From contig CAYJLC010000004.1 of NCBI GenBank assembly GCA_964370735.1, positions 30,824-94,823 on the forward strand: a stretch of 64,000 bases of DNA. The letters are read 5' to 3'. Every line of letters starts with the position of its first letter. Within the stretch, counting starts at the first letter, position 1. Positions 7,227 through 25,767 of this stretch are shown in pieces. Under the pieces are notes generated by a model that was given only the letters and a program-made list of their open reading frames with translations, had not been told where the DNA came from and did not search any database. The DNA is from an uncultured Oscillospiraceae bacterium. Lineage in GTDB: Bacteria > Bacillota > Clostridia > Oscillospirales > Butyricicoccaceae. The position numbers and the translations under genes were made by a program.

Positions 7227-7264
7227 GAAAATGAAAAAATACTTCGTCTAAACATACACATAAG

Positions 7265-8549: not shown

Positions 8550-8574
8550 AAAAATAAACAAAATGGAGGAAAAT

Positions 8575-9000
8575 ATGCTTAGAAATATACCAAATAATAT
8601 CTCGGCTGAGCTGCTTAAAATTCTAATGGAAATGGGGCATGGCGATGAAATTTGTATCGCTGATGCGAACTACCCTAAATTCGGTCATGCTAAAAATGTT
8701 GTAGACTGCACAGGACTTGAGATTTCAGAACTAATGGATAGCATTTTATCGCTAATGCCATTAGACCAATATGCTGAAAATCCAACTATATTTATGGCTG
8801 TTTTACCAAACGACCCTTATGTTCCAGAAATTTGGGAAAAGTATAGAGAAATCGGCAATAAATATGAAAAAGACGGTTTACGCGAAGAAACTATCAATAA
8901 ATTTGATTTCTATGAAAGAGCAAAAAATGCTTATGCAACTATCACAACAAGCGAAAAAGCATTATATGCTAATGTAATTATCAAAAAAGGTGTTCTATAA
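8575..9000 (+). CDS. RbsD/FucU family sugar mutarotase (L-fucose mutarotase-like)
   Basis: MLRNIPNNISAELLKILMEMGHGDEICIADANYP matches the FucU N-terminus pattern. The ATG at 8563 is an alternative start. Confidence 0.85.
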   Translation: MLRNIPNNISAELLKILMEMGHGDEICIADANYPKFGHAKNVVDCTGLEISELMDSILSLMPLDQYAENPTIFMAVLPNDPYVPEIWEKYREIGNKYEKDGLREETINKFDFYERAKNAYATITTSEKALYANVIIKKGVL

Positions 9001-9013
9001 TAAGGAGTTTCAG

Positions 9014-10360: not shown

Positions 10361-10399
10361 CACCTAGATAATAACGAATGATTTGTTATTATCTAGGTG
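10361..10399 (+). terminator. Strong hairpin ending the catabolic operon
   Basis: A 15-bp perfect stem CACCTAGATAATAAC / GTTATTATCTAGGTG encloses a 9-nt loop. The T-tract is only weak (CATTTCAATT). Confidence 0.55.
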
Positions 10400-10520: not shown

Positions 10521-12599
10521 ATGAAATCTACACTTTCAAAATATTTAATCACATATATTGCAATTTTTACAGCTTTTGTTGTTGGCTATTTTTTGCTGTT
10601 TGAAGTGCAAGTTAGAAACGAATTTTTAGAAAAAAACAACCAAAATCGCTTAAGTTCTGTAAATTACACGATGAACGTTCTTGCAAATCAATTCAATCAA
10701 CTTCAAAATTTAAGTATTTCGATTAACGAAGAAATCAGCCTTGAAACTTTAGGTTTTGACAGCACTTCTCGATTTAAAATTGGAAATATCATCAACGATA
10801 ATAAACGACAAAATTTGCTGATTTCGGATATAATTTATATTGATAACACAGAAAAAGAGTATATTTCTAGCTCCTTTGTTATTAATTTTACTGATGATGG
10901 TTATATTTTAGAAACACAATATGATGAGATTTTTTTGCCGTATGATAGGCTCATTCAAAATCCGATTATGGAGCTTTTGAGCGTCACTGGTGAAACAGAA
11001 AATCAATTAATTTTTCTCCCTAAAAATAACTCTGCAAACAAGATAACGCTCTTTGTAATCGATAAATTTAACCTTGAAACCTATTTTAACCTTAGTAGTG
11101 ATTTTAGCTCGCTTGGAATTATAGACAGCACGTCTAATGAAATTTTGTATGAAATCGGTGAAGAGTGCATAAATATTGATGGAAGTTCACTGAACTCCAC
11201 ATATTATGAAGAAGATGGGCATTTTTACTATATTTCAAGTGAACTTTTGGGTAGCTTTAAGGTTTTTGGTAGCCAATCTATCGAAAATCTATTCTACGCC
11301 GAAAATTCTTTGTTTGAAAATGTATACTATGGTTTGTTTTTGTTTGCGATTATTATTTTAATTTTTATTGTTATTTCGCTCCGTTTAACGTATGTTCCAC
11401 TATATAAACTTGCGAAAAAACTATCAACAGAAGGCAATTTGGATAAGAATTTCTTAAAACTTATTGATGATGCATATAGCGACCAAACGAGCAAATCGCT
11501 TAATCTTGAAAATGAGGTTAATGACTATAAATCAGCAATAAAATACTATGTTTTAGGAGATTTAGTTCGCAATGACACTGTTGCAGATGAACAATTTGAC
11601 GAAATTTTTAAGAGTGACCGAGAGCATTTATTCTATATAGTGAAAATTTTCAATAATAACAACTCACTTGCAACTGAAGTTAGGTCTGCGCTTGGTGAAA
11701 ATTCTGTCTGTATTTTGCTTAATAGCGATGTTCGTTCGCATACGTTGCTTGTCGATTTCTATGCCAAAACAATTGATAAAAACGAGAAAATCCTCAATCT
11801 TTTCGAAAAGATTTGTCAAAAATACGACTGCAAAGCAGGAATTAGTGCAAAATCTTCTGATGTAAATCAATTAACTTCGTTATATAATAATGTTAAATTC
11901 ATAACCGAAGATTTGTTCTTAGATAAAAATATTTTACAATATAGCGATGATTTGCGACCAAAAGATGCAAAATTCACTAGAATTTACGATAATATTGCAA
12001 AATTTGATGATTTATTTATCGAAAAAGAATATAAAGAGATTAAATCAGTTTTAGATGAGCTATTGATATCATTAAATGATAGGACGCTGCCAGAATTTTA
12101 TATAAAATGTATCTTAACCGATATAATAACTGTGATTTTTAAATATAACCACAATGTCGAAGGCGAAATTTCAATGAAATTGCTTAATTTAGTGCGACAT
12201 CACGATTATTTTGATGAAAAGCAACAAATTTCCGATATTCTGCACTCGATAATATATGATAATGAAAATTTAACTGCAAATATTAGCGTAGATTTAATTA
12301 AAAATTACATTTTAGAAAACTATGCTGATGTTAATTTTTCTCTGCAAAAACTAGCGCTTGATTTTAATGTGAGTTCGGCGTATCTAAGCTTTTTGTTCAA
12401 GAAACATACGAACATAACGCTTTCGGATTATGTTTGGCAGTTAAGGCAGGAGCAAATTATAAAGTATTTAGCAGAAACTGATTTAACTATTGAAGAAATA
12501 AGCATAAAAGTTGGCTATGATAATGTGTCAAGTCTTAGACGAAAATTCAAAAAAGAGACAGGCAAGACACCACATCAATTTAGAAAAAATGACAAATAG
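10521..12599 (+). CDS. Membrane-spanning AraC-family one-component regulator (extracytoplasmic sensor domain + cytoplasmic AraC HTH)
   Basis: TM1 is YLITYIAIFTAFVVGYFLLF. An extracytoplasmic region of about 250 aa follows, then TM2 VYYGLFLFAIIILIFIVISL. The C-terminus carries an AraC HTH (..LALDFNVSSAYLSFLFKKH..IEEISIKVGYDNVSSLRRKFKKETGKTPHQFR). Confidence 0.85.
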   Translation: MKSTLSKYLITYIAIFTAFVVGYFLLFEVQVRNEFLEKNNQNRLSSVNYTMNVLANQFNQLQNLSISINEEISLETLGFDSTSRFKIGNIINDNKRQNLLISDIIYIDNTEKEYISSSFVINFTDDGYILETQYDEIFLPYDRLIQNPIMELLSVTGETENQLIFLPKNNSANKITLFVIDKFNLETYFNLSSDFSSLGIIDSTSNEILYEIGEECINIDGSSLNSTYYEEDGHFYYISSELLGSFKVFGSQSIENLFYAENSLFENVYYGLFLFAIIILIFIVISLRLTYVPLYKLAKKLSTEGNLDKNFLKLIDDAYSDQTSKSLNLENEVNDYKSAIKYYVLGDLVRNDTVADEQFDEIFKSDREHLFYIVKIFNNNNSLATEVRSALGENSVCILLNSDVRSHTLLVDFYAKTIDKNEKILNLFEKICQKYDCKAGISAKSSDVNQLTSLYNNVKFITEDLFLDKNILQYSDDLRPKDAKFTRIYDNIAKFDDLFIEKEYKEIKSVLDELLISLNDRTLPEFYIKCILTDIITVIFKYNHNVEGEISMKLLNLVRHHDYFDEKQQISDILHSIIYDNENLTANISVDLIKNYILENYADVNFSLQKLALDFNVSSAYLSFLFKKHTNITLSDYVWQLRQEQIIKYLAETDLTIEEISIKVGYDNVSSLRRKFKKETGKTPHQFRKNDK

Positions 12600-12604
12600 A
12601 AAGT

Positions 12605-12632
12605 AGAGTTGGTTTTCCAACTCTTTTTCTTA
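12605..12632 (+). terminator. Rho-independent terminator after the AraC gene
   Basis: AGAGTTGG-ttttc-CCAACTCT followed by TTTTTCTT. Confidence 0.75.
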
Positions 12633-12804
12633 TATAGTTTTGTTTTTAGCTTAAATATTGCCTGTGAAAGTCAAAATGACCATAAATTTGTGAATTATGA
12701 TAATAAAATCAAACGGATTTTCTCGAAAATCAATTTTTGACAACTTTTTGCTACTGTAAGTGCTGAAATAGATAAACAATGACTATTTTAGCAACTTTTT
12801 AGAC

Positions 12805-12902
12805 TTGTGCAAATTGCTATTTGATTACTTAAAAATTGTGCATTTTTTTATTTTTTGGTTAAAATTTGTGCGTTTTTACTTGAAAAATCTCTAAAAACAC
12901 AA
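12805..12902. promoter_or_regulatory. Four phased TTGTG(C) boxes (candidate regulator binding array)
   Basis: TTGTGC occurs at 12805, 12836 and 12866. An inverted ACACAA sits at 12897-12902. Three boxes share the context AAAAWTTGTGYNTTTTT. Spacing is about 30-31 bp, and the array ends about 30 bp upstream of the -35 box. Confidence 0.55.
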
Positions 12903-12930
12903 TTTTTAACCACGAAATAAATATTGAATC

Positions 12931-12959
12931 TTGAAAATACTATACATCTGACCTATAAT
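12931..12959 (+). promoter_or_regulatory. Sigma-A type promoter of the ABC importer / sulfatase operon
   Basis: TTGAAA (12931-12936), a 17-nt spacer, then TATAAT (12954-12959). Confidence 0.65.
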
Positions 12960-13026
12960 GAAATTACACAAAAACACTGAAATAATACGGCGATTTTTGT
13001 TGTAATTACACAAAGGAGGAGTTTAG

Positions 13027-14025
13027 GTGGTAGATTCAAAAATATCCAAAAACAAACAAGTCAAAGCAAGTTTTAAAAGTTCATCTACAAAAAAACAAGA
13101 TAAAGAACTTTTAAGAAAGAATAATTTAAAAAAGTTTAAGCAGTCAATTCCGTTATATGTGATAATGCTTATTCCATTAATTTTCTTTATTATTTTCAAA
13201 TATGTACCTATGTATGGTCTACAAATTGCATTTAGAGATTATACAACAACAGGGGGAATTTGGGGTAGTGAATGGGTTGGAATGGATAATATAATGCGTT
13301 TCGTAAATTCATATAATTTCGAACAGATTATGTTTAATACAATTTCAATCAGTGTATATCAGCTTTTGGTATCTTTTCCTTTGACAATCTGTTTTGCACT
13401 AGTTTTAAACTCAGCGCGAACAGGAAAATTCAAAAAAGCAGTACAAATGATAACTTATGCACCTCACTTTATATCAGTTGTTGTAATGTGTGGTTTGATT
13501 TTGCAAGTTTTACAACCAAGAACTGGTGTTGTAAACATAATGCTTTCAGGCTTAGGCTTTGAAGAAATAAATTTCATGGGCGAAGCTTCTATGTTTTCTT
13601 CGATTTATGTATGGTCTGGAATTTGGCAGAATGTAGGCTGGGGCACAATAATTTACCTTTCAGCACTTTCAAGCATCGATTCTGAACTATATGAGGCTGC
13701 TGAAATAGATGGTGCGTCGAAATTCCAAATTGTACGCCATATTGATATTATGGGTATTTTACCAATGATTATCACTATGCTAATTATGGATGTTGGACGT
13801 ATTTTACAAGTAGGTTTCCAAAAGGTTTTATTACTTCAAAATGGACTGAATATATCATCTTCCGAAGTTATTCAAACTTATGCCTATAAAATCGGTTTAG
13901 CATCAGATATTCCTGATTTTTCATATTCGGCAGCAATCGGACTTTTCACAAGCTTAATTAACTTTACACTTCTTATAATTGTAAATAGAATTGCCAGAAA
14001 ATGTTCGGACAATAGTTTATGGTAA
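13027..14025 (+). CDS. Carbohydrate ABC transporter permease (LplB/YtcP-like)
   Basis: It is multi-TM with an EAA-loop region (..YEAAEIDGASKFQIVRHI..). The GTG start lies 6 nt after GGAGGA. Confidence 0.9.
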   Translation: MVDSKISKNKQVKASFKSSSTKKQDKELLRKNNLKKFKQSIPLYVIMLIPLIFFIIFKYVPMYGLQIAFRDYTTTGGIWGSEWVGMDNIMRFVNSYNFEQIMFNTISISVYQLLVSFPLTICFALVLNSARTGKFKKAVQMITYAPHFISVVVMCGLILQVLQPRTGVVNIMLSGLGFEEINFMGEASMFSSIYVWSGIWQNVGWGTIIYLSALSSIDSELYEAAEIDGASKFQIVRHIDIMGILPMIITMLIMDVGRILQVGFQKVLLLQNGLNISSSEVIQTYAYKIGLASDIPDFSYSAAIGLFTSLINFTLLIIVNRIARKCSDNSLW

Positions 14026-14036
14026 GGTGGTAGAAT

Positions 14037-14948
14037 ATGAATAGTTTTAATTTAGTTTTCAAAAAAGGTGTTAGCACATCTGATAGAGTTTTCGTTTTCT
14101 TAGTTTATGCAATAATCGCTTTCGCAGGACTTGTCGCACTTTATCCACTGATTTATGTTGTAAGTGCCTCATTTAGCTCGGCTGATGCACTAATTAACGG
14201 AGAAGTTGTGCTGTTTCCTGTCGATTTTTCGCTCGAAGCATATAAAATGGTATTTGAGTATAATGATGTATGGACTGGTTATGCAAATACGATTTTTATA
14301 ACGTTGATAGGTACAACTCTAAACGTGATTTTAACGCTTATGCTTGCATATCCACTCTCTAGAAAATCACTTTTCGGAAGAAAACAACTTACGTTCCTTT
14401 TAACATTTACAATGATGTTTTCGGCGGGTTTAATCCCTACATATTTACTTATGGACGATTTAGGGCTTGTAGGTTCAAGATTTGCGATTATTCTTTTAGG
14501 GTTACTTCCTGTTAGAAACGTAATATTAGCAAGAACTTTCTATAAAGAAACAATAGGCGATGAACTTATTGAGGCTGCAAAAATCGATGGTGCTAATGAA
14601 TATGTAATACTTCTTCAAATTGTAGCCCCACTTTCAAAAGCAATTTTAGCAGTTATCGCGTTGTTTACTTTCGTTGATTTCTGGAATGAATTTTTCAACT
14701 CGATGATTTATCTTAGAGATTTAGAATATTATCCACTGCAACTTATTTTAAGAGAAATTCTTATGATGGCAAATATCGACCCTACTGTTATGCCACTTGA
14801 CCCTGAAACACAAAATGCACTTGAGGGAATGAGTGAGCTTCTAAAATACGCAGTTATCGTAGTATCAAGCGTGCCTGTTATGTGTATCTTCCCACTTGTG
14901 CAAAAGCATTTTGTGCGTGGAGTTATGTCAGGTGCTGTTAAAGGTTAA
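14037..14948 (+). CDS. Carbohydrate ABC transporter permease (LplC-like)
   Basis: It is multi-TM with an EAA loop (..IEAAKIDGANEYVILLQIVAPLS..). Confidence 0.9.
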   Translation: MNSFNLVFKKGVSTSDRVFVFLVYAIIAFAGLVALYPLIYVVSASFSSADALINGEVVLFPVDFSLEAYKMVFEYNDVWTGYANTIFITLIGTTLNVILTLMLAYPLSRKSLFGRKQLTFLLTFTMMFSAGLIPTYLLMDDLGLVGSRFAIILLGLLPVRNVILARTFYKETIGDELIEAAKIDGANEYVILLQIVAPLSKAILAVIALFTFVDFWNEFFNSMIYLRDLEYYPLQLILREILMMANIDPTVMPLDPETQNALEGMSELLKYAVIVVSSVPVMCIFPLVQKHFVRGVMSGAVKG

Positions 14949-14971
14949 ACATTATTATTAAGGAGAATATT

Positions 14972-16660
14972 ATGAAAAAATTAACATCAATTATTTTAAG
15001 TGCGACTATGCTTTTAAGTCTAGTTGCTTGCACACCACAAAATGAGATTGACAATGAAATACCAGAAATTACTGAACCAGTAACACAAGAAACAGGTGAC
15101 CCTAATGTTAATCCTGCTGGTGAGTTTCCTATTGTAAAAGAACCTATTACGCTTAAAGTTTTAGCTTCTCAAATGGCAAATGTTGAAGATTTAAAGACAA
15201 ATGACTTTACAAAGCGTCTTGAAGAACTTACAAACATTAAACTAGAATGGGAAATCGTTCCTGCAACTTCTGCTCAAGAGAGATTAAATGTTCTTCTTGC
15301 AACAGGTGGTGATTTACCGGATATTTTACTAGGATTTGACATTAAAATGCCACAACAAATTGCATTTGGCGAAGAGCAACAAATGTTTGTTGATATGTCA
15401 CCATATTTAGATACTTATGCACCGAATATCAAAGAAGTATACGAAGATGTTCCGCTATTAGAAGATATGTCTAGAACACCAAACGGTGGGCTTTATGCAA
15501 TTTCTGGTGTTGAAGAAACGTATCATGTTAAGTTCCAACAAAAAGCATGGATTCAAAATTCGTATCTTGAAGCATTAGACACAGAACTTCCTACAAATAC
15601 AGACGAATTTAAAGATTTACTTATCGCAATTCGTGATGAAGACCCAAATGGCAATGGTGAACAAGACGAAATTCCATATATCGGGGCAACAACAGGCTGG
15701 AGTTTACCAATCGTTCCGTTTACAATGTCAGCTTTTATCGACTATTATAACATAGACGGTGTACCAACCGATATCGCATTTACAGTAGAAGATGGAAATA
15801 TTGAAATTGCTGCTGATAAAGACGGTTTCAAAGAAGGATTAATGTACTTAAATGACCTTGTAAACGAAGGTTTGCTTGATCCACTTTCATTCACACAAGA
15901 TCAAAAACAGCTAAAAACTCTTACAGGTAACGAAAACGATATCGTAGGTATTTTCACAGCAGGTGCTCCTGGTGGTGGCGTTAATGGTGCTGATAATCAA
16001 TTAAAATGGACAGCAGTTCCTCCTCTTGAAGGCCCATCTGGCGAAAATTACACAAGATATATTCCAATGTCACTTTCTTATGGTAGATACGCAATAACTA
16101 ACCAATGCGAAAACGTTGAGGCGGCTGTTCGTCTTGTAGACTATCTAATGTCACGCGAAGGAACTCTTAATTCGTCAATCGGTGTTGAGGGTGTTGACTG
16201 GGAATGGAATACTGACGAGAACGTTAAAGGCCTAAATGGTGATACAGCAGTTTATATTAGACATACTCCTTATGGCGTTCAACAAAATGTGAACTGGGAC
16301 AAAATGGCTCCTCTAAATTTAGTTGATGAATTTAGAAATGGTCAGGCAGCGCCAGAGGGTGCTTCTAACATAGAAGGTATGCTATATAAAGAATCAGAAG
16401 AGAAATATGCTCCAGTGAATACTGAAAAATATATTTTACCAGTAGCAATTCCAGATGAAGACCAAAACGACTTCACAGACATTTCAACTTCACTTGAAAC
16501 GTATTTAAAACAAAGTGTGGCTGAGTTTGTAGTTGGTGTTCGTTCATTCGACGATTGGGACACACACGTTGCGACAATTGAATCTATGGGCGCTGAGCGT
16601 TTTGAAGAAATCATCAATAATGCTTATGCAAATCAATACGGAACTTTAGGTTTAGAATAA
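14972..16660 (+). CDS. Extracellular solute-binding lipoprotein (large LplA-type, 562 aa)
   Basis: The signal peptide has a lipobox (LLSLVAC). Size and composition are typical of Firmicutes oligosaccharide-binding proteins. Confidence 0.85.
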   Translation: MKKLTSIILSATMLLSLVACTPQNEIDNEIPEITEPVTQETGDPNVNPAGEFPIVKEPITLKVLASQMANVEDLKTNDFTKRLEELTNIKLEWEIVPATSAQERLNVLLATGGDLPDILLGFDIKMPQQIAFGEEQQMFVDMSPYLDTYAPNIKEVYEDVPLLEDMSRTPNGGLYAISGVEETYHVKFQQKAWIQNSYLEALDTELPTNTDEFKDLLIAIRDEDPNGNGEQDEIPYIGATTGWSLPIVPFTMSAFIDYYNIDGVPTDIAFTVEDGNIEIAADKDGFKEGLMYLNDLVNEGLLDPLSFTQDQKQLKTLTGNENDIVGIFTAGAPGGGVNGADNQLKWTAVPPLEGPSGENYTRYIPMSLSYGRYAITNQCENVEAAVRLVDYLMSREGTLNSSIGVEGVDWEWNTDENVKGLNGDTAVYIRHTPYGVQQNVNWDKMAPLNLVDEFRNGQAAPEGASNIEGMLYKESEEKYAPVNTEKYILPVAIPDEDQNDFTDISTSLETYLKQSVAEFVVGVRSFDDWDTHVATIESMGAERFEEIINNAYANQYGTLGLE

Positions 16661-16667
16661 TTTAGAT

Positions 16668-16702
16668 AGGGGCGAGGGTTTGACCCTTTCCCCTTATTTT
16701 TA
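16668..16702 (+). terminator. Intercistronic hairpin / partial terminator after the binding-protein gene
   Basis: AGGGGCGAGGGtttgaCCCTTTCCCCT followed by TATTTTTAT. It begins TAGGGGCG, like the repeat-family hairpin. Confidence 0.45.
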
Positions 16703-16715
16703 TAAAGGAGAAAGT

Positions 16716-18878
16716 ATGAATATTTATGTTTCACCAAATGGTGATGATGGAAATAATGGTAGCAGATTATCACCGATTAAGACGATAGAAGAGGCAAAAA
16801 ATCGTGTTCGTCAGCTTGAAACAGGAGATATCACCGTTTTGCTTCGTGGTGGCAGATACCAAATTAACGAAACTATTTATTTTGGTATAGAAGACGGCGG
16901 AAACGAAAATAAAACAGTAACTTACAAGGCATTTGTCGATGAAGTTCCATATTTCACATCGGAAATCGATGTTATTGGTTGGGAAAAAGCAGATTTAGAA
17001 GAATTCCCTGAAATTTCAAAAGGAAAAATCTACAAAGCACCATTTCCAAATGGTATCACCGAAGTTAAGACAATGTTTTCAGGAAATACGCGACTAACAA
17101 GGGCGCACAGCGAAATGGTAAATCCTGAAAAAATCCACGAGTACACAAGAATGGACAGCCTAAATGTTGCACTTGAAAGCGAGCGTCCACTACTTAGACG
17201 AGTTGATTTTAAGGCTGGATTTATCAAAAAACGTCCGAATATGAGTGATATTGAACTTCGTTTTATGCCTGTTCCATGGACGATGAATTTACTTCCTTTG
17301 GCTTTAGTTGACGAAGAAAACAGTGTCGCAACTCTAGCAGTAGAGGCAACAACACCGCTTTCAGGAAAACCAGACGGTATGCGCGTAGAAAACGACCCGA
17401 TGTATATGACAAAAGAAGGATTTTTCTGCACAAATTCTCAGAAAAGAGAGATTTATTACTTTGGTGAACCTAAAAATATAAAAACTCCATCGGTTTTATG
17501 CTTTTTTGCAATAGAAGGCGATACAGATTATGAAAAACCTGTTGATACACCTGTAAAAAATCTGCATTTCGAGGGATTAGAGTTCGCGTTCAGTTCAAGA
17601 TACACGACAAAAGACGGCTACAAAGGCACAGGAATTCAGCACGACTGGGAGATGTTTGACACCAGAAATTCTGTAATTCGTTTTAGAGGCGCCGAAGACT
17701 GCTCGCTTACAAATTGTCACATTCATAGCACATCAAACACTGCAATAAGACTCGATTTACATTGCAAAAACATATTAATTAAGAACAATTTAATCGATGA
17801 CATTGGAAATATGGGCATCCTTTTATGTGGTTATGGACCTGGCACAAAAGACGTTAACAAAAACAATATTATAACAAATAATATAATAACTAGGTGTGGC
17901 GAAGAAATTTGGCATGGTCATGCGATTTTCTTGTGGCAAAGTGGTGAAAATTTAGTATCACACAATAAAATTCATCACTCAGCACGAAAAGGAATCGGAC
18001 TTTGTGGCGTGAGAATTACAATTCTAAAACGTCCAGACCATAAATTTGATGAGGCATCTAAAACTATTCGTTGGAATGAAATCGAAATCACTGATGAGAA
18101 TGACGATTTTGCAAACTATACGAAGTATTTACATTGTAGAAATAATATTATAGAGAAAAACAATGTTTATAAAGTTATCGAAAAAATAGGTGATGGTTCG
18201 GCTATAAATGTTTCAGGTGCTGGCACAGGAAACAACATTCGAGAGAATTATATTCACCATATTTCTACATATTTTTCGAGTAGCGTGCTTAGAACTGATG
18301 ATTGGCAAAGTGATACAATTTTTGAACGAAATGTTATTTATAAATCGAATATTTCAGGTATTACACGCAAAAATTACACTCATATTATTAATAATTTCAT
18401 CATTGATGTTAGTGCTAAAAATGGATATATTCGATTTGCATCTTATCCAAACGAGAAGGCAAATTACGGCTCTAAAATAAAAAACAACATTTACTTTGAC
18501 ACCGAAGATGAAATGAAAGTTTTCGGAAAAGGATATCTTGTGTCAGAGGGTGCGACTTTACCAGAAAATTGCGAAATTAGTAATAATATTATGTTTTGCA
18601 AGGAAAACAACGGCTGTTTGAACGAGCATTTTTCTGAAGTAAGTGAAGTCGGTAGCAAAATTTGCGACCCACTTTTCAAAGATATAGAAAATGAAGATTT
18701 TACTTTTTGCGAAAATTCACCAGCAATTTCTATGGGTATTTCCGAAATCGACGTAAAAAACACTGGAATTACGTCTGAATTTCCGAAAAGACTTCTCGAT
18801 TTAGAATATGAAGGCTCGCTTGATGATGAATATGACAGAGGAAAAAATCCAAATAAAACACAATACAACTGGTGGTAA
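16716..18878 (+). CDS. Cytoplasmic right-handed beta-helix protein (candidate glycan-active enzyme; family unknown)
   Basis: It has no signal peptide. The N-terminus YVSPNGDDGNNGSRLSPIKTIEEAKNRV..LLRGGRY parallels the N-terminus of the 1799-aa protein. There are repeated NN-I-x-N/I-G coil motifs (..IKNNLIDDIGN.., ..ITNNIITRCG.., ..HNKIHHSARKGIG..). The ATG at 16716 follows AAGGAG. Confidence 0.7.
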   Translation: MNIYVSPNGDDGNNGSRLSPIKTIEEAKNRVRQLETGDITVLLRGGRYQINETIYFGIEDGGNENKTVTYKAFVDEVPYFTSEIDVIGWEKADLEEFPEISKGKIYKAPFPNGITEVKTMFSGNTRLTRAHSEMVNPEKIHEYTRMDSLNVALESERPLLRRVDFKAGFIKKRPNMSDIELRFMPVPWTMNLLPLALVDEENSVATLAVEATTPLSGKPDGMRVENDPMYMTKEGFFCTNSQKREIYYFGEPKNIKTPSVLCFFAIEGDTDYEKPVDTPVKNLHFEGLEFAFSSRYTTKDGYKGTGIQHDWEMFDTRNSVIRFRGAEDCSLTNCHIHSTSNTAIRLDLHCKNILIKNNLIDDIGNMGILLCGYGPGTKDVNKNNIITNNIITRCGEEIWHGHAIFLWQSGENLVSHNKIHHSARKGIGLCGVRITILKRPDHKFDEASKTIRWNEIEITDENDDFANYTKYLHCRNNIIEKNNVYKVIEKIGDGSAINVSGAGTGNNIRENYIHHISTYFSSSVLRTDDWQSDTIFERNVIYKSNISGITRKNYTHIINNFIIDVSAKNGYIRFASYPNEKANYGSKIKNNIYFDTEDEMKVFGKGYLVSEGATLPENCEISNNIMFCKENNGCLNEHFSEVSEVGSKICDPLFKDIENEDFTFCENSPAISMGISEIDVKNTGITSEFPKRLLDLEYEGSLDDEYDRGKNPNKTQYNWW

Positions 18879-18887
18879 GGAGAGTTT

Positions 18888-20270
18888 ATGAAAAAACCTA
18901 ATATAGTATTTTTACTTACAGATGACCAACGATTTGACACAATTAATGCACTGGGAAATCCTGATATTATCACGCCAAATATGGATTTTTTAGTTGAAAA
19001 CGGCACAAGTTTTACAAATGCACATATTCCAGGTGGAACTTCTGGTGCAATTTGTATGCCTAGTCGTGCGATGATTAACACAGGGCGTACGCTATTTAAT
19101 CTCGAGGGTGAAGGACAAAATATCCCAAAAGAACATAAAACTATCGGAGAAATACTTAAAGAAAACGGATATTACACATTCGGCACAGGAAAATGGCACA
19201 ATGGACCTCCATCGTTTACAAGAAGTTTTGATTTTGGCGATAATATTTTCTTCGGTGGAATGTGGGATCACTGGAATGTACCGACAAATTATTATGACCC
19301 AACAGGCGAATATGACAACGTGATAAATTTCGTGGCAAATTCTGCTGGAAGTAATAAAGTCACAAAAGTTCACTGCGATAAATTCAATGCAGGCGTACAT
19401 TCTAGCGAACTTTTGACGCAAACTACGGTTGACTTTATCGAAAGAAGACGTGACGACAAGCCGTTTTTTGTGTATACTGCATACCTTGCACCACACGACC
19501 CACGCACAATGCCAGAAGAATACAAAAATATGTATAATATCGACGACATAAAGCTACCACCGAATTTTACCCACGACCCATTTGACTTTGGTGTTCGCAA
19601 TATTCGCGACGAAGTTCTCGCATCTTATCCACGAGATGAGAGAACTATTAAAGAGCAAATAGCTGAATATTACGGTATGATTACCCATCTTGACCACGAA
19701 ATTGGCAAGGTTATCGATGCTGTACGTCGCAAAGGTGAACTTGATAATACAATTTTCATTTTGGCAGGTGACAATGGCCTTGCAATGGGTTGCCATGGAC
19801 TTATGGGCAAACAAAATCATTACGAGCATAGTATCAGAATTCCACTTGTGATGTGTGGTGCTAATCTTCCGAAAAACAAAAAAATTGATAATTTCGTTTA
19901 TTTAATGGATATTTTTCCTACGATTTGTGATATTTTAGATGTAGAAATCCCAAGTTCTGTTGAAGGAAAGTCTTTTTATAAGATGTTTTCTGATGATGCA
20001 TACAAAACTCGTGAAAACTTGTATTTTGTGTATAATGACTTAATTCGTTCAGTTAAAAATGAACGCTATAAACTTATCGAATATCGTAATTTTATCACAA
20101 AAACAGAACTTTTCGACCATCAAAATGACTCTTGTGAAATGAATGATTTATCGAAAAACCCAGAGTATTCTGATGCGAAAAACGAGCTTTCAGAGCTTTT
20201 GCAAAAATATAAAACCGAGTGGAACGATGAAAATCATCATTTGGGCAAAAAGTATTGGAATGCTTTTTAA
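18888..20270 (+). CDS. Sulfatase (S1 family, Cys-type), no signal peptide
   Basis: N-terminus PNIVFLLTDDQRFDT. The formylglycine motif C-M-P-S-R is at codons 56-60 (19053-19067). A ..GKWH.. motif and ..FILAGDNG.. are also present. Confidence 0.9.
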   Translation: MKKPNIVFLLTDDQRFDTINALGNPDIITPNMDFLVENGTSFTNAHIPGGTSGAICMPSRAMINTGRTLFNLEGEGQNIPKEHKTIGEILKENGYYTFGTGKWHNGPPSFTRSFDFGDNIFFGGMWDHWNVPTNYYDPTGEYDNVINFVANSAGSNKVTKVHCDKFNAGVHSSELLTQTTVDFIERRRDDKPFFVYTAYLAPHDPRTMPEEYKNMYNIDDIKLPPNFTHDPFDFGVRNIRDEVLASYPRDERTIKEQIAEYYGMITHLDHEIGKVIDAVRRKGELDNTIFILAGDNGLAMGCHGLMGKQNHYEHSIRIPLVMCGANLPKNKKIDNFVYLMDIFPTICDILDVEIPSSVEGKSFYKMFSDDAYKTRENLYFVYNDLIRSVKNERYKLIEYRNFITKTELFDHQNDSCEMNDLSKNPEYSDAKNELSELLQKYKTEWNDENHHLGKKYWNAF

Positions 20271-20287
20271 AATAAAACTATTAAAAG

Positions 20288-20308
20288 AGCTGTTTTTACA
20301 GCTTTTTT
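20288..20308 (+). terminator. Short terminator/attenuator between the sulfatase and the surface-protein gene
   Basis: AGCTGT-tttt-ACAGCT followed by TTTTT. It sits 18 nt before the next RBS. Confidence 0.5.
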
Positions 20309-20325
20309 AAATAAAGGAGAGAAAA

Positions 20326-23300
20326 ATGTTTAAAAAAATAACAAGTTTAATTCTTGCTACTTCTGTAATATTATCGCTTTCACCAAATATTTTTGCGACA
20401 AATACTGATGATTTAAGCGATATTTTTGTATCAAAAAACGGAAGTGATAGTGCAAATGGCTCGATTGAAACTCCATTTGCAACACTCGAAAAAGCACTTA
20501 ACACTGCAAAAAACACAGGACAAGATGTTTATATAAGAGGTGGCACTTATTACGAAAATATTCAAATTTCCGACGTTCATAACATTGAAATTTCAAATTA
20601 TAACGGAGAAAAAGTAACTTTTAACGGCACAACTGCAATTGAAAATAACTGGATAGCCACAACAAACGAAGAAGTTCCATCTTTTGTGCGTGAAAATGTT
20701 TATGAAACGACAGTTAATGAAGATATTTGGCAACTTTTTAAAGAAGATGAAACATTAGTTACTGCGAGATTTCCAAACGGTAGCTTTGATTATGAAGATG
20801 GAATTGGCTATATTTTCAACTTAAAAGAAACAACAAGGCATTTAAGCCAAGCAAAAGACGAGAATGGTGAGTTTTTATCAGAATTTGGGCATTTTTATGA
20901 CGAAAATCCGTCTTCAACAGCCACAAATAACGGTGATTATGATGAAGGCAACGATGTTTCTTATGACTCTGCACGAACGCATCTAAATGAAGTTGGAATT
21001 GATGAATTGTCTTATAGCCTTGAGGGCGCAAACGTGGTTTTACACATGGGTTCGTGGCTTTCTTGGGCAAATGTTGTTACAGAACACGAAATTTATGCTG
21101 ATAATTTTAAATTTAGCAAAGATTTCTCTGGTTCTGGCACTGCAATGAATAATAATGCGATTTTATGGGGCGGTGGAGAAAATGGTACAGGTAACGCTAC
21201 TTGGAACGCAAAAAATTTAAATGGCGGACAAGGGTATTACTTCTTTGAAGGCCTACAATGTATCGACCACGAAAACGAGTGGTATTATGATAAAGATACA
21301 GGAAAAGTTTATGTTTATAGCGAAAATGGTGCTCCAGCAGGCAATTATTTTGGAAAAACACAGACTTATTACTTAGAAATGAGCAATTCTTCAAATGTTA
21401 CTATTAATGGGATTGACTGCTTTGCGACAACTCTTTCGGTAACAGACAGCACAAATATAACGCTTGAAAATTCGAATTTTTTATACCCAAGTTATAATAA
21501 ATTAGTGCTTGACGAGTACACAAGACCAGAAGTGACAAAATTTTGGAACTCAAATAGTACAGCCGACGCAAATAATACGGTTAGAAATTGTAAATTTGAG
21601 TATATGGACGGCCCTGCACTTGAAATGAACGGTAAATATAATGTTATTGACAATAATTTGATGCACCACATAGACTATACGACACTTGGTACAGGTGCTG
21701 AAGGAACTATAAATGTTGCGAGTGCTGATTTTGCAAAAATTACTCGAAATACAATCCATACTGCGGGTAATTCCGAGGGGATTCGTGCAGGAAAAAGCGC
21801 CGAAATTATGTATAACGATTTGTCAAATATGAGCTTGCTTCAACACGACGGTTCGCTTATTAACATCGGGGCTAGCGTGCAAAATGGCGTTCAAATCAGG
21901 TATAATTGGGTGCACGACGCACCAAAATCGAGCATACGTTTTGACACTGCTGGAATGGGAAATGCCGATACTGTTCAGTATGATGAAAACGGCACAATGG
22001 CGTATAATGTCACTTGGAATGTCGGTCAAATGAAAATTAAAGGCGAAAATCATTATATCGTAGGAAATACTGCTTTGACATCAAATGCAGCGCATAAAAT
22101 TGGGATTTCTGTATTATATGACCCTCCGATGGGTGGATTTAACGAAAAAACGCTCACTTTTAACAATGCAGGCATACTTTCAGGGCATTTTGGTGTACCA
22201 ACTGATATTCCTAGCGTAACACAAGGTGGAAACTTTAACGGAAGTGTTGAAAGTTTGCTTGTCGACCCTGAAAATCTAGATTTTAGACCAAAATCTGACT
22301 TGCTTATAAATAATGGTACGACAAATTTTGATGCATCAAATGAGTTTGGCGAAAATCCAATGGAATTTTTTAAATCAGGGCAAAACAGTGTTAGTATCGG
22401 CGCTTATGAATATGGCGATGAAAACTATATGATTGCTGGATTTAAGGATGAAAAAGCATCTGTTCCAATTCCGAAAGACAACGGCACGAAAGCAGATACT
22501 GAGTTTGACTTAATGTGGCTTTCTGCCTATAATTCGACGGATAATAGAGTATATTTCGGAACAAATCCTGAAAATTTACAGGTGAAATCTACACAAACTA
22601 ACAATATTTGTAGTTTTACAGCCGAAGATGAGCTTGAACTGAATCAAACTTACTATTGGAGAGTTGATTCTTTTGTAGATGGAAAATGGATTACTGGCGA
22701 TGTTTGGAGCTTTGAAACTATCCCAAATATTGCAAATGTTTCTTCTATAAGTCAGCTTGAAAATGCGCTTTTGGACAACAGTATCGACGTAATTAATGTA
22801 ACATCTGATATTACTTCAAATGTTGATATTTCTCGCACAGAAAGCGTTGAAATAAACCTAAATTCAAGCGCGATTACAGGAAATGTTAGCATAAATTCGG
22901 ACGCCTATGCTGTCACTATCAATGGCGACAGAGGCATTATCGGAGATATTTCGATAAATTCGCCTAAATCGACTGTTAACATAAACACACCGGTTACAGG
23001 CGATGTAAATATTGCAAATGTGTTTAGTTTCTTTAATTCTTCGACTGCAAATGCTGTAAATGTTAACGGAAAAGGGAATATTCAAAGTGAAAATCCGATT
23101 TTCATTAACACGACAGAGCGTATCGATTTAGTCGGTGATATTGGCGATGTGATATTTGGTGAATTCAGCGGAGTTTATCCATTTACTAAGGCTATTGTAT
23201 ATCAAATTGACACGATTACTGGCTTAGATGAGCAAATTACCGACAAATATAATGGAATTCAATTAGAAATTCTTCCGAAATCAATAGATATTCCTGTTAC

Positions 23301-25725
23301 ACTTGATAAAACATTCGAGAAACTGACAATTTCTAGACCGTCTACTGTTAATGGTGGAAATATTTCAAGAGTGGATATTAAAGCGGATGGAAATATTAAT
23401 TCTTCTGTCGAAACTACTAATATTTTGACAAAAGATATTGAATTTACAAATCAAGGAACAATCGATATTTTAAACAGTGGCGTTAATTTTGCTATTGAAA
23501 ATTTAGGTACAATAAATCAAATTAATCTTACAGCTAACAACCTTATTATTACAGTTTTAGGGGAAAATGTGCCGATTTTCTACACAAATCTCGACCCTGC
23601 TACAATTAAAATTGTAGATGAAAATGGTGATGAAATTATTGGTGCTAAGGTGTATAAAGTGCTTTCTGCTCCACAAAATCTTGTAGGATTGGCACCAACT
23701 TCGCAAGGTGGAAAGGGTAAAATTTCTGGCATTACGACTGAGATGGAATTTTCGAGTGATAATGGCGAAACATACACAAAAATCACTGATACTGACATGG
23801 GGTTTGATGTTGGAGAATATCTTGTGAGATTTGCTGAAACAGAGCATAATCTTTCTAGCGAAGCGACTTTAGTTACAATTGGCGAGTTTAATCAGCTTTT
23901 ATATGATGAAATTTTAGCAGAAATGCAAAAATATTATGATAATGCCACTATTCCAAACACAGTTTTAAAGGGCGAAGATGTACAAGATTATGTTATTTTA
24001 TTAGATGATGGTGCATCTGCAAGCAATGAAATTTCAAAAAATCCAAGCACAGTGTCAAATGACCTATTGACAGTTAAAAATGGCAAATTAACGCTAACTG
24101 ACATAGTTCTAAAGGACGCAATGGACAATACACTTGATGTTTCGATTACTTTTGAAAAAAATGGTATGATTTTGACAAAAAATGTAAATGTCACTATCGA
24201 AAAGAGCGAAAAAGGTCTTATTGATATTACAAATGAGCAGATAAATACGATTTCAGGCTTAAATTCGGAGGTTCTAGACAACGAAATCATAATTACAGGT
24301 GAAAGCAATGTCCCACAAATAAAAACCGAGCTATATCTTCCGACAGGAATTACAGCAAGACTTGCTACAAATGTAGCGCTTCAAGCGAATACGAAGTGGA
24401 CGATTGACGGAACACTTTATATAGACAAAATGATGAACGACAAGTCTAAAACAGAAAATTTTGGAACAAATGGACAGCTGATTTTTGCTAGTGAAACTTC
24501 TTCATATAGAGTGATAGACAAAACTGCAATCGGAGAATATCAAGGTAGTTTAGGTGTTTTAACACTTGACGACAGTTCGGAAATCATTCTTTCTTCGGAC
24601 AAACAAACGATTACAATTTCTAAAGGCACTGTTAAAATTCCTGCTGGAAAAACATTAACTTTAGGTGATGTTTCTGACTTTAATAGTACAGAAATTGATA
24701 AAGGAAATCTAACCATTAAAAATTTAGTTATAAATGATGATGCGAGCATTAAAGTTAATGGTACGTTCGATTATAACGGAAGAAATTTCACAGGTAATGG
24801 AACGATTTTAGTTGGTAATGGCACAATTATAGGAGAAGTTGAAACTCTTTCGCTTTCATCTGTAATTGAAAAACAAAGTGGGAATATTAATTATTCTAGC
24901 ACAGATAGCCTAACAATTAGTATCACAGAAAAATCATTAAGTTCAGGTGATGTTTTCAAATTAAATGCTCAAACAAAACCAAATAACGATGAAGTTATAT
25001 GGAGTTCTAGCGATGAAAATGTAGCTACTGTTGATGAAAATGGAAGTGTCACAGCTATTTCAAGTGGTTTTGCGATAATAACTGCAAAAAAAGCTCACAA
25101 TAGTGAAAAATACGCTACTTGTTATATAGAGGTAATAGGTTCGAGCGTTAGACCACGTCCGAATGATGATGATTTGGTAGAAAATAATCAAAATATTGAA
25201 ATTGAAGAAACAGAAACACCATTAACAGATGGTGAGAAATTAAAATTCACAGATATTTCAGAGCACTGGGCGAAAAATGCTATCGAATATGTGGTTGAAA
25301 ACGAGCTTATGAACGGAATTTCTGAAACAGAATTTGCTCCAAACTTAGAAATGTCAAGAGCGATGATTTGGACAGTTTTATATCGTTTAGATGGAAATAC
25401 TGACGAAACAGGCGATATTTGGTATGAAAAAGCTATGGCTTGGGCTGTGGAAAACGAAATCTCTGACGGAACAAATCCGATGGATAGTATCACTCGTGAA
25501 CAACTTATTACGATGCTTTGGAGAGATGCTGGCGAACCAGTTTCTGAGTATGATTTATCAGGGTATACTGATTTAAGTGATGTTAATGATTATGCAAAAG
25601 TTGCGTTTGCTTGGGCAGTAGAAAATGGATATATTTCAGGTAAAGCTGAAACTTTACTTGCACCAAAAGACACAGCAACAAGAGCAGAAGTTGCAACAAT
25701 TTTAACAAGAATTCTAGATAAATAG
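20326..25725 (+). CDS. Secreted, S-layer-homology-anchored giant beta-helix protein (1799 aa)
   Basis: It has a signal peptide (..LSLSPNIFATN). The beta-helix N-terminus is FVSKNGSDSANGSIETPFATLEKAL..IRGGTYY. A Big_2-like domain is present (..VIWSSSDENVATVDENGSVTAIS..). Three C-terminal SLH repeats are present (FTDISEHWAKNAIEYV.., WYEKAMAWAVEN.., DYAKVAFAWAVENGYISG..). Confidence 0.85.
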   Translation: MFKKITSLILATSVILSLSPNIFATNTDDLSDIFVSKNGSDSANGSIETPFATLEKALNTAKNTGQDVYIRGGTYYENIQISDVHNIEISNYNGEKVTFNGTTAIENNWIATTNEEVPSFVRENVYETTVNEDIWQLFKEDETLVTARFPNGSFDYEDGIGYIFNLKETTRHLSQAKDENGEFLSEFGHFYDENPSSTATNNGDYDEGNDVSYDSARTHLNEVGIDELSYSLEGANVVLHMGSWLSWANVVTEHEIYADNFKFSKDFSGSGTAMNNNAILWGGGENGTGNATWNAKNLNGGQGYYFFEGLQCIDHENEWYYDKDTGKVYVYSENGAPAGNYFGKTQTYYLEMSNSSNVTINGIDCFATTLSVTDSTNITLENSNFLYPSYNKLVLDEYTRPEVTKFWNSNSTADANNTVRNCKFEYMDGPALEMNGKYNVIDNNLMHHIDYTTLGTGAEGTINVASADFAKITRNTIHTAGNSEGIRAGKSAEIMYNDLSNMSLLQHDGSLINIGASVQNGVQIRYNWVHDAPKSSIRFDTAGMGNADTVQYDENGTMAYNVTWNVGQMKIKGENHYIVGNTALTSNAAHKIGISVLYDPPMGGFNEKTLTFNNAGILSGHFGVPTDIPSVTQGGNFNGSVESLLVDPENLDFRPKSDLLINNGTTNFDASNEFGENPMEFFKSGQNSVSIGAYEYGDENYMIAGFKDEKASVPIPKDNGTKADTEFDLMWLSAYNSTDNRVYFGTNPENLQVKSTQTNNICSFTAEDELELNQTYYWRVDSFVDGKWITGDVWSFETIPNIANVSSISQLENALLDNSIDVINVTSDITSNVDISRTESVEINLNSSAITGNVSINSDAYAVTINGDRGIIGDISINSPKSTVNINTPVTGDVNIANVFSFFNSSTANAVNVNGKGNIQSENPIFINTTERIDLVGDIGDVIFGEFSGVYPFTKAIVYQIDTITGLDEQITDKYNGIQLEILPKSIDIPVTLDKTFEKLTISRPSTVNGGNISRVDIKADGNINSSVETTNILTKDIEFTNQGTIDILNSGVNFAIENLGTINQINLTANNLIITVLGENVPIFYTNLDPATIKIVDENGDEIIGAKVYKVLSAPQNLVGLAPTSQGGKGKISGITTEMEFSSDNGETYTKITDTDMGFDVGEYLVRFAETEHNLSSEATLVTIGEFNQLLYDEILAEMQKYYDNATIPNTVLKGEDVQDYVILLDDGASASNEISKNPSTVSNDLLTVKNGKLTLTDIVLKDAMDNTLDVSITFEKNGMILTKNVNVTIEKSEKGLIDITNEQINTISGLNSEVLDNEIIITGESNVPQIKTELYLPTGITARLATNVALQANTKWTIDGTLYIDKMMNDKSKTENFGTNGQLIFASETSSYRVIDKTAIGEYQGSLGVLTLDDSSEIILSSDKQTITISKGTVKIPAGKTLTLGDVSDFNSTEIDKGNLTIKNLVINDDASIKVNGTFDYNGRNFTGNGTILVGNGTIIGEVETLSLSSVIEKQSGNINYSSTDSLTISITEKSLSSGDVFKLNAQTKPNNDEVIWSSSDENVATVDENGSVTAISSGFAIITAKKAHNSEKYATCYIEVIGSSVRPRPNDDDLVENNQNIEIEETETPLTDGEKLKFTDISEHWAKNAIEYVVENELMNGISETEFAPNLEMSRAMIWTVLYRLDGNTDETGDIWYEKAMAWAVENEISDGTNPMDSITREQLITMLWRDAGEPVSEYDLSGYTDLSDVNDYAKVAFAWAVENGYISGKAETLLAPKDTATRAEVATILTRILDK

Positions 25726-25737
25726 AAATTGAAAAAA

Positions 25738-25767
25738 ACGATAGTTTTAAAGACTATCGTTTTTTTA
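25738..25767 (+). terminator. Rho-independent terminator after the surface-protein gene
   Basis: ACGATAGT-tttaaag-ACTATCGT followed by TTTTTTT. Confidence 0.8.

Follow-up and report, generated by a model that had tools for sequence, protein, structure and literature searches.

The stretch of DNA considered here, referred to below as the window, comprises 64,000 nucleotides of contig CAYJLC010000004.1 from an uncultured Oscillospiraceae bacterium. Between positions 10521 and 25725 it contains seven co-oriented open reading frames (ORFs) on the plus strand, which encode a regulator, the two permeases and solute-binding protein (SBP) of an ATP-binding cassette (ABC) importer, a sulfatase, and two large beta-helix proteins: one of 720 amino acids (aa), here termed BH-A, and one of 1799 aa, whose conserved N-terminal unit is here termed BH-B (Table 1). 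An earlier note, made from the sequence alone, had read this region as a Gram-positive-style utilization locus for a sulfated glycan without an ATPase of its own; inspection of the ORFs found all seven where that note had placed them, in the same order and with the same sizes and predicted locations. Gram-positive polysaccharide utilization loci (gpPULs) of Firmicutes combine a regulator, an SBP-ABC transporter, and carbohydrate-active enzymes (CAZymes), and share an ATPase (MsmX-type) in trans. The region resembles them in its regulator, two permeases, large lipoprotein SBP, and co-located CAZymes, and annotation of the window ORFs recovers no ABC ATPase gene inside the locus; the nearest one (26727-27422, minus strand) is paired with a GntR regulator and belongs to an unrelated unit.

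The regulator carries its helix-turn-helix (HTH) domain at the predicted cytoplasmic C-terminus (aa 590-690), and two hydrophobic spans (aa 9-27 and 271-289) would leave the ~240 aa between them outside the membrane. Orthologous AraC-type regulators stand at the head of two related loci, L004 and L005. The first permease has five hydrophobic spans and orthologs in Firmicute loci, and orthologs of the SBP precede BH-A in L004, L005, L007, and L009-L013. The six genes downstream of the regulator (13027-25725) are spaced 10-56 bases apart. The best sigma-70-like promoter of the region precedes them, as a pattern match only; the total of such sites in the region is not above that in shuffled sequence. 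The hairpin beyond the last gene likely closes the operon as a bidirectional terminator.

Table 1. Features of the window discussed in the text, in order of position; residue ranges within the 1799-aa protein are given in aa.
Feature	Coordinates	Strand	Evidence
Catabolic operon: GatY-like class II aldolase, LacI, xylulokinase-like FGGY kinase, GatD-like zinc-dependent alcohol dehydrogenase (Zn-ADH), aldo-keto reductase (AKR), FucU/RbsD-like mutarotase, GatZ	2373-10303	+	
Membrane-spanning AraC-family sensor-regulator, 692 aa	10521..12599	+	Pfam HTH_18 E 5.5e-19; hydropathy
Terminator-like hairpin, 3' of regulator gene	12605..12624	+	Consensus scan
Best sigma-70-like promoter match of the region, TTGAAA-17-TATAAT, 11/12, 5' of permease 1	12931..12959	+	Consensus scan
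ABC permease 1, LplB/UgpA-like	13027..14025	+	PF00528 (BPD_transp_1) E 1.1e-13; NCBIfam UgpA/GlcT-like
ABC permease 2, LplC/MalG-like	14037..14948	+	NCBIfam MalG/GlcU-like E 3e-16; six hydrophobic spans
Large lipoprotein SBP, 562 aa	14972..16660	+	PF01547 (SBP_bac_1) E 3e-11; lipobox L-V-A-C
BH-A, GH141-family right-handed beta-helix glycoside hydrolase, 720 aa	16716..18878	+	PDB 9rx2 E 1e-125; Pfam Beta_helix
Cys-type S1 (formylglycine) sulfatase, 460 aa	18888..20270	+	PF00884 E 2e-51, with SGSH_C
BH-B protein, secreted, wall-anchored, multidomain, 1799 aa	20326..25725	+	Domains below
Sec signal peptide, aa 1-24	20326..20397	+	Sequence; hydropathy; AlphaFold2 pLDDT <50 for aa 1-29
BH-B putative catalytic module, GH141-like beta-helix, aa ~30-710	20413..22455	+	AlphaFold2, Foldseek, hhalign, invariant residues
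Fn3-like beta-sandwich, aa ~711-800, end of conserved BH-B unit	22456..22725	+	AlphaFold2, Foldseek
I/T/N/S-rich orphan stalk, 726 aa, aa 801-1526	22726..24903	+	Sequence
Big_2 Ig-like domain, aa 1527-1595	24904..25110	+	Pfam E 1.8e-8
Three S-layer homology (SLH) repeats, cell-wall anchor, aa 1640-1799	25243..25722	+	Pfam SLH E 5.6e-18
Hairpin, 14-bp stem, A/T-flanked	25732..25766	.	Consensus scan

BH-A, taken to start at an ATG within a mechanically called ORF that opens at 16680, has neither a signal peptide nor a transmembrane span by sequence and hydropathy, and is therefore predicted to be cytoplasmic. It matches PDB entry 9RX2 over its full length, with 38% identity over aa 29-713, and the PDB search also returns the GH141 fucosidase BT1002, matched in its N-terminal part. 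No paper citing 9RX2 ('Parallel beta-helix repeat protein', 717 aa) was found in the literature. Its sequence, rebuilt from HMMER alignments and then used as a search query, is 100% identical to protein P0165 of Mariniflexile fucanivorans, a classical fucoidan degrader, and 76% identical to P0178 of Wenyingzhuangia fucanilytica. The termini of the W. fucanilytica Wf141 enzymes were derived by translating the published cloning primers and compared with P0178 and with the ORFs of its contig, L076; because they match, P0178 is Wf141_2 and the other three Wf141 genes lie on the same contig. The four enzymes of strain CZ1127, Wf141_1 to Wf141_4, are filed in glycoside hydrolase family 141 (GH141) and are all endo-fucanases, not exo-fucosidases: they act on fucoidans, or sulfated fucans, and on oligosaccharides with a degree of polymerization (DP) of 4-10, down to DP 4-6, and show no fucosidase activity on p-nitrophenyl (pNP) glycosides (PMC12786026). 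Wf141_1 and Wf141_2 are classified as sulfated (1,3;1,4)-alpha-L-fucan endo-1,4-alpha-L-fucanases (EC 3.2.1.212), and these two and Wf141_4 fall in CAZy family GH141, CUPP branch GH141*6 (PMC12786026, IJMS, Dec 2025).

In pairwise comparison, BH-A is 34-35% identical to Wf141_1, Wf141_2, and Wf141_4 over ~690 residues (E 1e-113 to 1e-125), and a BH-A family profile built from 46 homologs scores them at 711, 672, and 610 bits, respectively. Three motifs, invariant in the 46 homologs with the exception of S495, mark BH-A: QHDW at 308-311 (with W311), D493-G494-S495, and R526-T-D528. The residues W332, N515, and R547 of Wf141_1, in the numbering of its authors, correspond to the QHDW, DGN, and RxD motifs, and D493-G494 and R526-x-D528 align with the DG(N) and RTD of Wf141_1, Wf141_2, Wf141_4, and 9RX2. 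The published GH141*6 signatures are xHQxWxxxD, xDG...NxxxxNx, and xRxDx, with N515 and R547 (Wf141_1 numbering) among their residues (PMC12786026). Set against these, BH-A has QHDWxxxD, DG, N506/N511, and RxD, so that the motif order QHDW...D, DG...N....N, RxD is that of the three Wf141 enzymes, with N515 replaced by S495 and RTDGGQ by RTDDWQ. In BT1002 the catalytic Asp residues are D523 and D564, their equivalence to the Asp residues of the fucanase DG and RxD motifs comes from a published structural superposition, and a Gln stands in place of the QHDW-motif Trp (PMC12786026). An attempt to fix the register of the BT1002 Asp pair against BH-A by hidden Markov model (HMM) alignment was ambiguous, owing to slippage of the beta-helix coils, and was set aside.

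The AlphaFold2 model of BH-A has a mean confidence (predicted local distance difference test, pLDDT) of 94.3, and its best Foldseek match is 5mqp (BT1002; E 1.7e-24, TM-score 0.55/0.65), which is the best solved match within a library of entries to April 2026 that does not include 9RX2; the beta-helices of GH120, GH136, and GH110 follow. The BH-A family profile matches BT1002 at E 1e-27, with sequence similarity mainly in the N-terminal half, and the GH141_M Pfam domain falls just under threshold in BH-A family members (26.4 vs. 27 bits). Since full-length homology, motifs, and fold match agree, and features expected of a GH141 member (similarity over the catalytic module, the beta-helix fold with its insertion domain, and the conserved Asp pair) are all present, BH-A is, by its sequence and predicted structure, a GH141-family hydrolase. 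The earlier note had left both beta-helix proteins without a family and had proposed AlphaFold and Foldseek as a check. That check placed both in the GH141 fold or superfamily, with BT1002 (5mqp) on top; the claim that neither protein could be assigned does not hold for BH-A, a full-length homolog of GH141 endo-fucanases and of a solved structure, and BH-B is the only one of the two that stays uncharacterized.

The conserved BH-B unit makes up residues 1 to ~800 of the 1799-aa protein and occurs elsewhere as stand-alone proteins of 710-870 aa; the family has at least 150 representatives at 50% identity with full-length scores >590 bits. Profile alignment over 558 columns relates it to the BH-A family (hhalign 99.8%, E 2.7e-29). 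In this alignment H-D508-G and R538-F-D540 of BH-B fall opposite D493-G and R526-x-D528 of BH-A, and both D508 (H-D-G) and D540 (R-F-D) are invariant in 30 BH-B homologs. An N-terminal signature shared by the two proteins had been noted previously; the motif is real in both, but on its own it is a generic cap motif that also matches GH120, PL9, and PL6 beta-helix enzymes (PL, polysaccharide lyase). The resemblance of BH-A and BH-B is nonetheless not a chance one, because the two are homologous across ~560 aligned columns. The BH-B profile also reaches 9rx2 (E 1.3e-19) and 5mqp (E 4.4e-13), while in pairwise BLAST against GH141 enzymes most of the similarity lies in the N-terminal cap (E 1e-6 to 3e-8), with one weak internal stretch besides (E 4e-4). 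The AlphaFold2 model (pLDDT 87.9) has 5mqp as its top Foldseek match (E 1.2e-16, TM-score 0.44-0.46/0.57-0.60), and no fucanases appear among the listed matches. BH-B thus has the fold and the catalytic Asp pair of GH141, and lacks the QHDW...D motif of the fucanase branch. These comparisons suggest that it represents either a separate large family related to GH141 or a deep GH141 branch. Two families of endo-1,3-fucanases, GH174 (Fun174A) and GH187 (Fun187A), were also considered for BH-B. The GH187 fold, described as 'dominated by beta-sheets', is comparable with BH-B by this description only; for GH174, PMC12534559 cites structural work.

Wf141_3, a divergent GH141 singleton with reported endo-fucanase activity, is as close to BH-B as any characterized protein (hhalign 99.8%, E 1.4e-28). 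The alignment spans 468 columns and brings the H-D and F-D motifs into register. Identity in that alignment is ~21%, and the BH-A profile gives Wf141_3 a better score (165 bits) than the BH-B profile does (105 bits). Its native product, encoded at L076 5092-7464, is 790 aa long with C-terminal PDZ-domain matches, unlike the C-terminus of the BH-B protein, which consists of Fn3, stalk, and SLH regions; since the published reverse primer stops at an internal GVSEELKK, the assayed Wf141_3 construct appears to lack the PDZ tail.

Beyond its beta-helix, the BH-B protein combines an N-terminal signal peptide with a C-terminal SLH triplet, the features that mark an SLH-anchored surface enzyme; the count of three SLH repeats in the earlier note stands, with two units over the Pfam threshold and the third recognized by eye. 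The Fn3-like part is defined by AlphaFold2 strands at aa 712-798, Foldseek matches to Fn3 domains, and a weak Pur_ac_phosph_N match. The stalk lacks both internal repeats and homologs among the fetched loci, and its only domain match, at aa 803-913, is a weak 'pectate lyase-like adhesive' one below the cut-off (PF20585, E 5e-4). Its role could be that of a spacer, a stalk, or a binding region.

The sulfatase has the maturation motif C56-M-P-S-R60 of an S1 enzyme and no signal peptide, which places it in the cytoplasm. Its group of orthologs is sharply bounded (identity at least 34%, next relatives at 28%) and is found in 24 BH-A loci across phyla, with 52-74% identity in Firmicutes and 38-41% in Colwellia; this group, to which the window sulfatase belongs, travels with BH-A.

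A BH-A pattern scan over one genome per species yielded 70 loci, of which the 59 with at least five genes were counted; their ORFs were labeled by comparison with proteins of the window itself, a pair of GH29 seeds, and the BH-A and BH-B profiles. The 59 loci, from at least eight phylum-level groups, nearly all contain an S1 sulfatase (56/59), and GH29 alpha-L-fucosidases (41/59) and BH-B (34/59) are frequent; BH-A and BH-B are adjacent in 20/59, and sulfatases account for 150 of 673 genes. Members of the BH-A clade come from Bacteroidota, Kiritimatiellota, Lentisphaerota, Verrucomicrobiota, Planctomycetota, Gammaproteobacteria, Spirochaetota, and Firmicutes. Metagenome loci centered on BH-B (n = 54) contain a sulfatase in 35, BH-A in 18, and GH29 in 16, and a remote BH-B sub-branch has none of these neighbors. 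In a Pfam census of 119 other neighbor proteins, type IX secretion system (T9SS)-sorted proteins and SusD were seen, and no carrageenase, ulvan lyase, or glycosaminoglycan (GAG) lyase was present within the 25 most frequent families.

The window locus is syntenic with seven other Firmicute loci, in which the gene order is regulator (AraC or LacI), permease, permease, lipoprotein SBP, BH-A, and sulfatase, with GH29 genes in some cases before or after the sulfatase; one of them also has BH-B. None of the BH-A, sulfatase, and GH29 proteins of these loci has a signal peptide, their SBPs are lipoproteins, and the BH-B protein is secreted, whereas Gram-negative BH-A proteins have a signal or lipoprotein peptide. 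The closest relative is the metagenome-assembled genome (MAG) 'Eubacteriales FM_66_G121_IV' (BH-A 68%, sulfatase 74%), whose isolate name suggests an origin in the hindgut of Kyphosus sydneyanus, a seaweed-eating fish; a study of that hindgut noted Clostridia GH29/GH141 transcripts (PMC11333855). No fucose catabolic genes were found beside the Oscillospiraceae loci, where the neighbors are LacI, GH88, GH30, and housekeeping genes.

Several loci differ from the window in arrangement. Seven loci of Colwellia, Psychrobium, and related Gammaproteobacteria (L043, L050, L063, L064, L069, L104, and L141) share a fixed block of sulfatase, sulfatase, BH-B, and BH-A, the first sulfatase being the ortholog of the window's: the same trio in another phylum and in another gene order. 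Flavobacteriaceae loci (L017-L033, L051, L091, L092, and L137) have tandem BH-A paralogs of ~736 and ~760 aa, followed by BH-B or by sulfatases and GH29; the one pair compared, in L017, is ~50% identical, and the tandem arrangement suggests sub-functionalized specificities within one locus. In L005, a ~1.5-kb tract between the SBP and BH-A genes (8480-10000), the position at which its relatives carry the sulfatase, consists of repeated SBP 3'-end fragments and contains no sulfatase remnant. A Reichenbachiella MAG (L026, 12444-15114) has a Zn-ADH and an altronate/galactarate-dehydratase-family protein directly 3' of BH-A; the latter resembles the UxaA-type fuconate dehydratases of non-phosphorylative fucose pathways. 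Close BH-B relatives (35-42% identity) also occur without sulfatase, GH29, or BH-A, in Vibrio azureus (CP018617, L077) and on contigs JDSF01 (L078/L080) and JMSU01 (L133), at least the first of which looks Firmicute; one of these proteins is fused to a chitin-binding type-3 domain, and CBM_4_9 lies near others. Some BH-B enzymes may not target sulfated fucans.

Taken together, gene content, homology, fold, conserved acidic motifs, and recurrent genomic association indicate that the region is probably a Gram-positive-type utilization locus for sulfated fucan (fucoidan, or fucose-containing sulfated polysaccharide). The earlier proposal of a sulfated-glycan locus is thus upheld and its substrate narrowed; signal and transmembrane predictions also agree with the topology it described, namely a secreted, SLH-anchored beta-helix protein, a lipoprotein SBP with ABC import, and a beta-helix protein and sulfatase without signal peptides, and this topology recurs in the related Firmicute loci. 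The substrate, the endo or exo mode of cleavage, the division of labor, and the regulation are what we infer from these observations. The membrane AraC sensor would control the operon 13027-25725, presumably by detecting an extracellular product. The exported 1799-aa protein, held on the wall by its SLH repeats, would cut sulfated fucan outside the cell through its BH-B module, and the SBP and two permeases, energized by an ATPase encoded elsewhere and acting in trans, would import the sulfated fuco-oligosaccharides. In the cytoplasm, BH-A would cleave the imported oligosaccharides further and the S1 sulfatase would remove sulfate esters, and GH29/GH95 exo-fucosidases from elsewhere in the genome would finish the process by releasing fucose.

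A number of observations weigh against this assignment, and several of them would fit the same architecture directed at another sulfated glycan, such as a sulfated galactan or carrageenan, ulvan, the side chains of a sulfated galactofucan, or host mucin or glycosaminoglycan. GH141 is polyspecific (PMC12786026), with a xylanase and a pectin-specific fucosidase among its members. Within GH141, BH-A belongs to a separate clade (DGS / RTDDWQ), whose identity to the assayed Wf141 clade (DGN / RTDGGQ) is only 34-41%, so that linkage, sulfation pattern, or even sugar specificity could differ from those of the Wf141 enzymes. No characterized member of the BH-B family was found, its alignment to the BH-A family has a gap at the QHDW...D segment, and some of its close relatives lie in loci devoid of sulfatases, as described above. 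The nearest solved relatives of the sulfatase are 6hr5 (an ulvan Rha3S sulfatase domain, which we take to be S1_25) and 6pt4 (an iota-carrageenan exo-2S sulfatase). Subfamilies linked to fucoidan include S1_15, S1_16, S1_17, S1_22, and S1_25; these PDB neighbors, at a low identity of roughly 30% by eye, are not decisive for a subfamily. Among the scanned window ORFs of at least 150 aa there is no fucosidase (GH29/GH95), though equivalent loci of relatives carry fucosidase genes, and no sulfatase-maturating enzyme, either a radical-SAM anaerobic sulfatase-maturating enzyme (anSME) or a formylglycine-generating enzyme (FGE); an anSME or FGE may be encoded elsewhere in the genome. The adjacent catabolic operon, finally, contains no recognizable L-fucose pathway, and its GatY, GatZ, GatD-like ADH, and FGGY kinase resemble a galactitol/tagatose-type route. 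Even so, the low identity of the 6hr5 and 6pt4 alignments blunts the argument from the sulfatase, the closest characterized relatives of BH-A are fucanases, GH29 accompanies BH-A in most of the homologous loci, the syntenic Firmicute ones included, and carrageenase, ulvan-lyase, and GAG-lyase families are not frequent neighbors. A different sulfated glycan is thus a rather unlikely substrate, if one to be kept in mind.

Alternative roles for the beta-helix proteins themselves must also be considered. BH-A could be an exo-acting alpha-L-fucosidase or sulfo-fucosidase like BT1002, releasing monomers from imported oligosaccharides and standing in for the missing GH29: it is cytoplasmic and the only glycosidase downstream of the importer in the locus, BT1002 is its best solved fold match in a library predating 9RX2, and at substrate-binding positions its clade carries other residues than the assayed endo-fucanases do (N to S, GG to DW). 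We consider this doubtful, though the strongest of the competing proposals, given that all four assayed Wf141 enzymes are endo-acting and lacked fucosidase activity on pNP-glycosides, that the similarity to BT1002 is concentrated in the N-terminal half, and that relatives retain GH29 genes beside BH-A. The SLH anchor, the Big_2 domain, the ~720-aa orphan stalk with its weak match to an adhesive domain, and the lack of a characterized BH-B relative would suit a non-catalytic adhesin or S-layer-associated protein that only binds glycan; such a role is improbable for the 1799-aa protein, whose D508 and D540 are invariant across 30 homologs and align with the GH141 catalytic motifs, and whose stand-alone counterparts of 710-760 aa are common in sulfatase/GH29 loci. 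It is more improbable still that the two function as polysaccharide lyases on a sulfated glycan that contains uronic acid. Matches of the N-terminal cap to PL9 and PL6 lyases, the Pfam label 'Pel9A-like' on relatives, and a GH88 neighbor in one Firmicute locus might be read in this way; however, the lyase matches span only 50-100 N-terminal residues, GH141 hydrolases provide both the full-length homologs and the best fold matches, and GH88 and GH105 are not recurrent neighbors.

If the locus does serve sulfated fucan, the fate of the released sugar bears on the adjacent catabolic operon, into which its products had been proposed to feed. The operon forms a transcription unit distinct from the locus, includes a LacI regulator of its own, ends in a strong hairpin (10361-10399), and is not present beside the closest Firmicute loci. 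A canonical L-fucose pathway was rejected, as FucI and FucA are absent and the FucU-like mutarotase scores below the NCBIfam cut-off; GatY-type aldolases, by the known stereospecificities of the dihydroxyacetone phosphate (DHAP) aldolases, have the wrong C3/C4 stereochemistry for L-fuculose-1-P. Nor is this the canonical galactitol or tagatose set. On the other hand, orthologs of its AKR (56-58% identity) are immediate neighbors of BH-A in Puteibacter (L049) and a Verrucomicrobia MAG (L075), L049 also holds FucU, a major facilitator superfamily (MFS) transporter, and a Zn-ADH, and orthologs of GatZ (42%) and Zn-ADH (50%) adjoin a BH-B gene on contig L139. Because AKR, FucU, GatZ, and Zn-ADH recur in three unrelated loci, a link of the operon to the locus is hinted at rather than established, and the operon could constitute a non-canonical route for a fucoidan-derived sugar.

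Comparison with known systems places the proposed sulfated-fucan locus both close to and apart from them. The Wf141 cluster shares with BH-A loci the S1 sulfatases and further beta-helix genes as neighbors, but Wf141_1, Wf141_2, and Wf141_4 carry the secretion signals of a Bacteroidota cluster, whereas BH-A, in a sister clade, is cytoplasmic behind an ABC importer. Similarly, 9RX2 provides an experimental structural template for the BH-A family in its lipoprotein or secreted flavobacterial form, unlike the signal-less BH-A. BT1002 (PDB 5MQP), the GH141 alpha-L-fucosidase of the Bacteroides thetaiotaomicron rhamnogalacturonan II (RG-II) PUL, shares an N-terminal cap and the GH141 insertion domain with BH-A and BH-B, but is only 14-16% identical to them and exo-acting on a pectic side chain. 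Fucoidan loci with GH141-type beta-helices, S1 sulfatases, and GH29 are known from Bacteroidota, Verrucomicrobiota, and Planctomycetota (PMC11685898, PMC12786026). The fucoidan PULs or clusters of these phyla (Lentimonas among the Verrucomicrobiota) and of Kiritimatiellota have the same GH141-type, S1, and GH29 set as the related BH-A loci. These Gram-negative systems rely either on SusC/D or on processing in the periplasm, and their enzymes are secreted or periplasmic, in contrast to the SLH-anchored enzyme, SBP-ABC import, and cytoplasmic processing of the window locus with its three enzymes. No characterized Firmicute system of the gpPUL type for fucoidan or sulfated fucan was found in the literature searched; the window locus is set apart by the Gram-positive architecture, the minimal size, and the pairing with the uncharacterized BH-B family.

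The remainder of the window adds context. The convergent minus-strand unit at 25909-27828, comprising the GntR regulator, the ABC ATPase, and a 274-aa protein without a Pfam match, looks like a small exporter unit unrelated to the locus. No sequencing run was found that contains the stretch. A DUF4015 'putative glycosyl hydrolase' protein is encoded at 57171-58196 (minus strand), in a long run of minus-strand genes with an RnfC-like gene at its end. No Rfam family reaches its gathering score across the whole 64 kb, despite the presence of ribosomal-protein and pheT genes, which are frequent sites of leaders or T-boxes.

Few marine polysaccharides resist degradation as strongly as fucoidans do, and fucoidans contribute to the sequestration of carbon. 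Known fucoidan degraders employ dozens to hundreds of enzymes and, by the fucanase literature consulted, almost all come from four Gram-negative phyla. It is possible, though we advance it only tentatively, that BH-B represents a large uncharacterized family (or deep GH141 branch) of extracellular sulfated-fucan depolymerases, and that with this locus a Gram-positive anaerobe provides the first minimal, experimentally tractable system for fucoidan. If so, the linkage or sulfation specificity of BH-B would differ from that of the GH107, GH168, GH174, GH187, and Wf141 enzymes, and the minimal system would consist of a single surface enzyme, a single importer, and two enzymes in the cytoplasm, possibly coupled to a non-canonical deoxy-hexose route through the FucU, AKR, Zn-ADH, FGGY-kinase, and GatYZ operon. 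As a candidate new fucoidanase family that recurs beside GH141, sulfatase, and GH29 genes, BH-B belongs to a class of enzymes wanted as tools for producing defined fucoidan oligosaccharides. Should the sulfated-fucan assignment be true, this three-enzyme Firmicute locus, with its progression from outside cleavage through import to inside processing, would offer a compact model that could inform the function of GH141-type beta-helix proteins and their partner sulfatase, and the access of fermenters to fucoidan in anaerobic and gut habitats.

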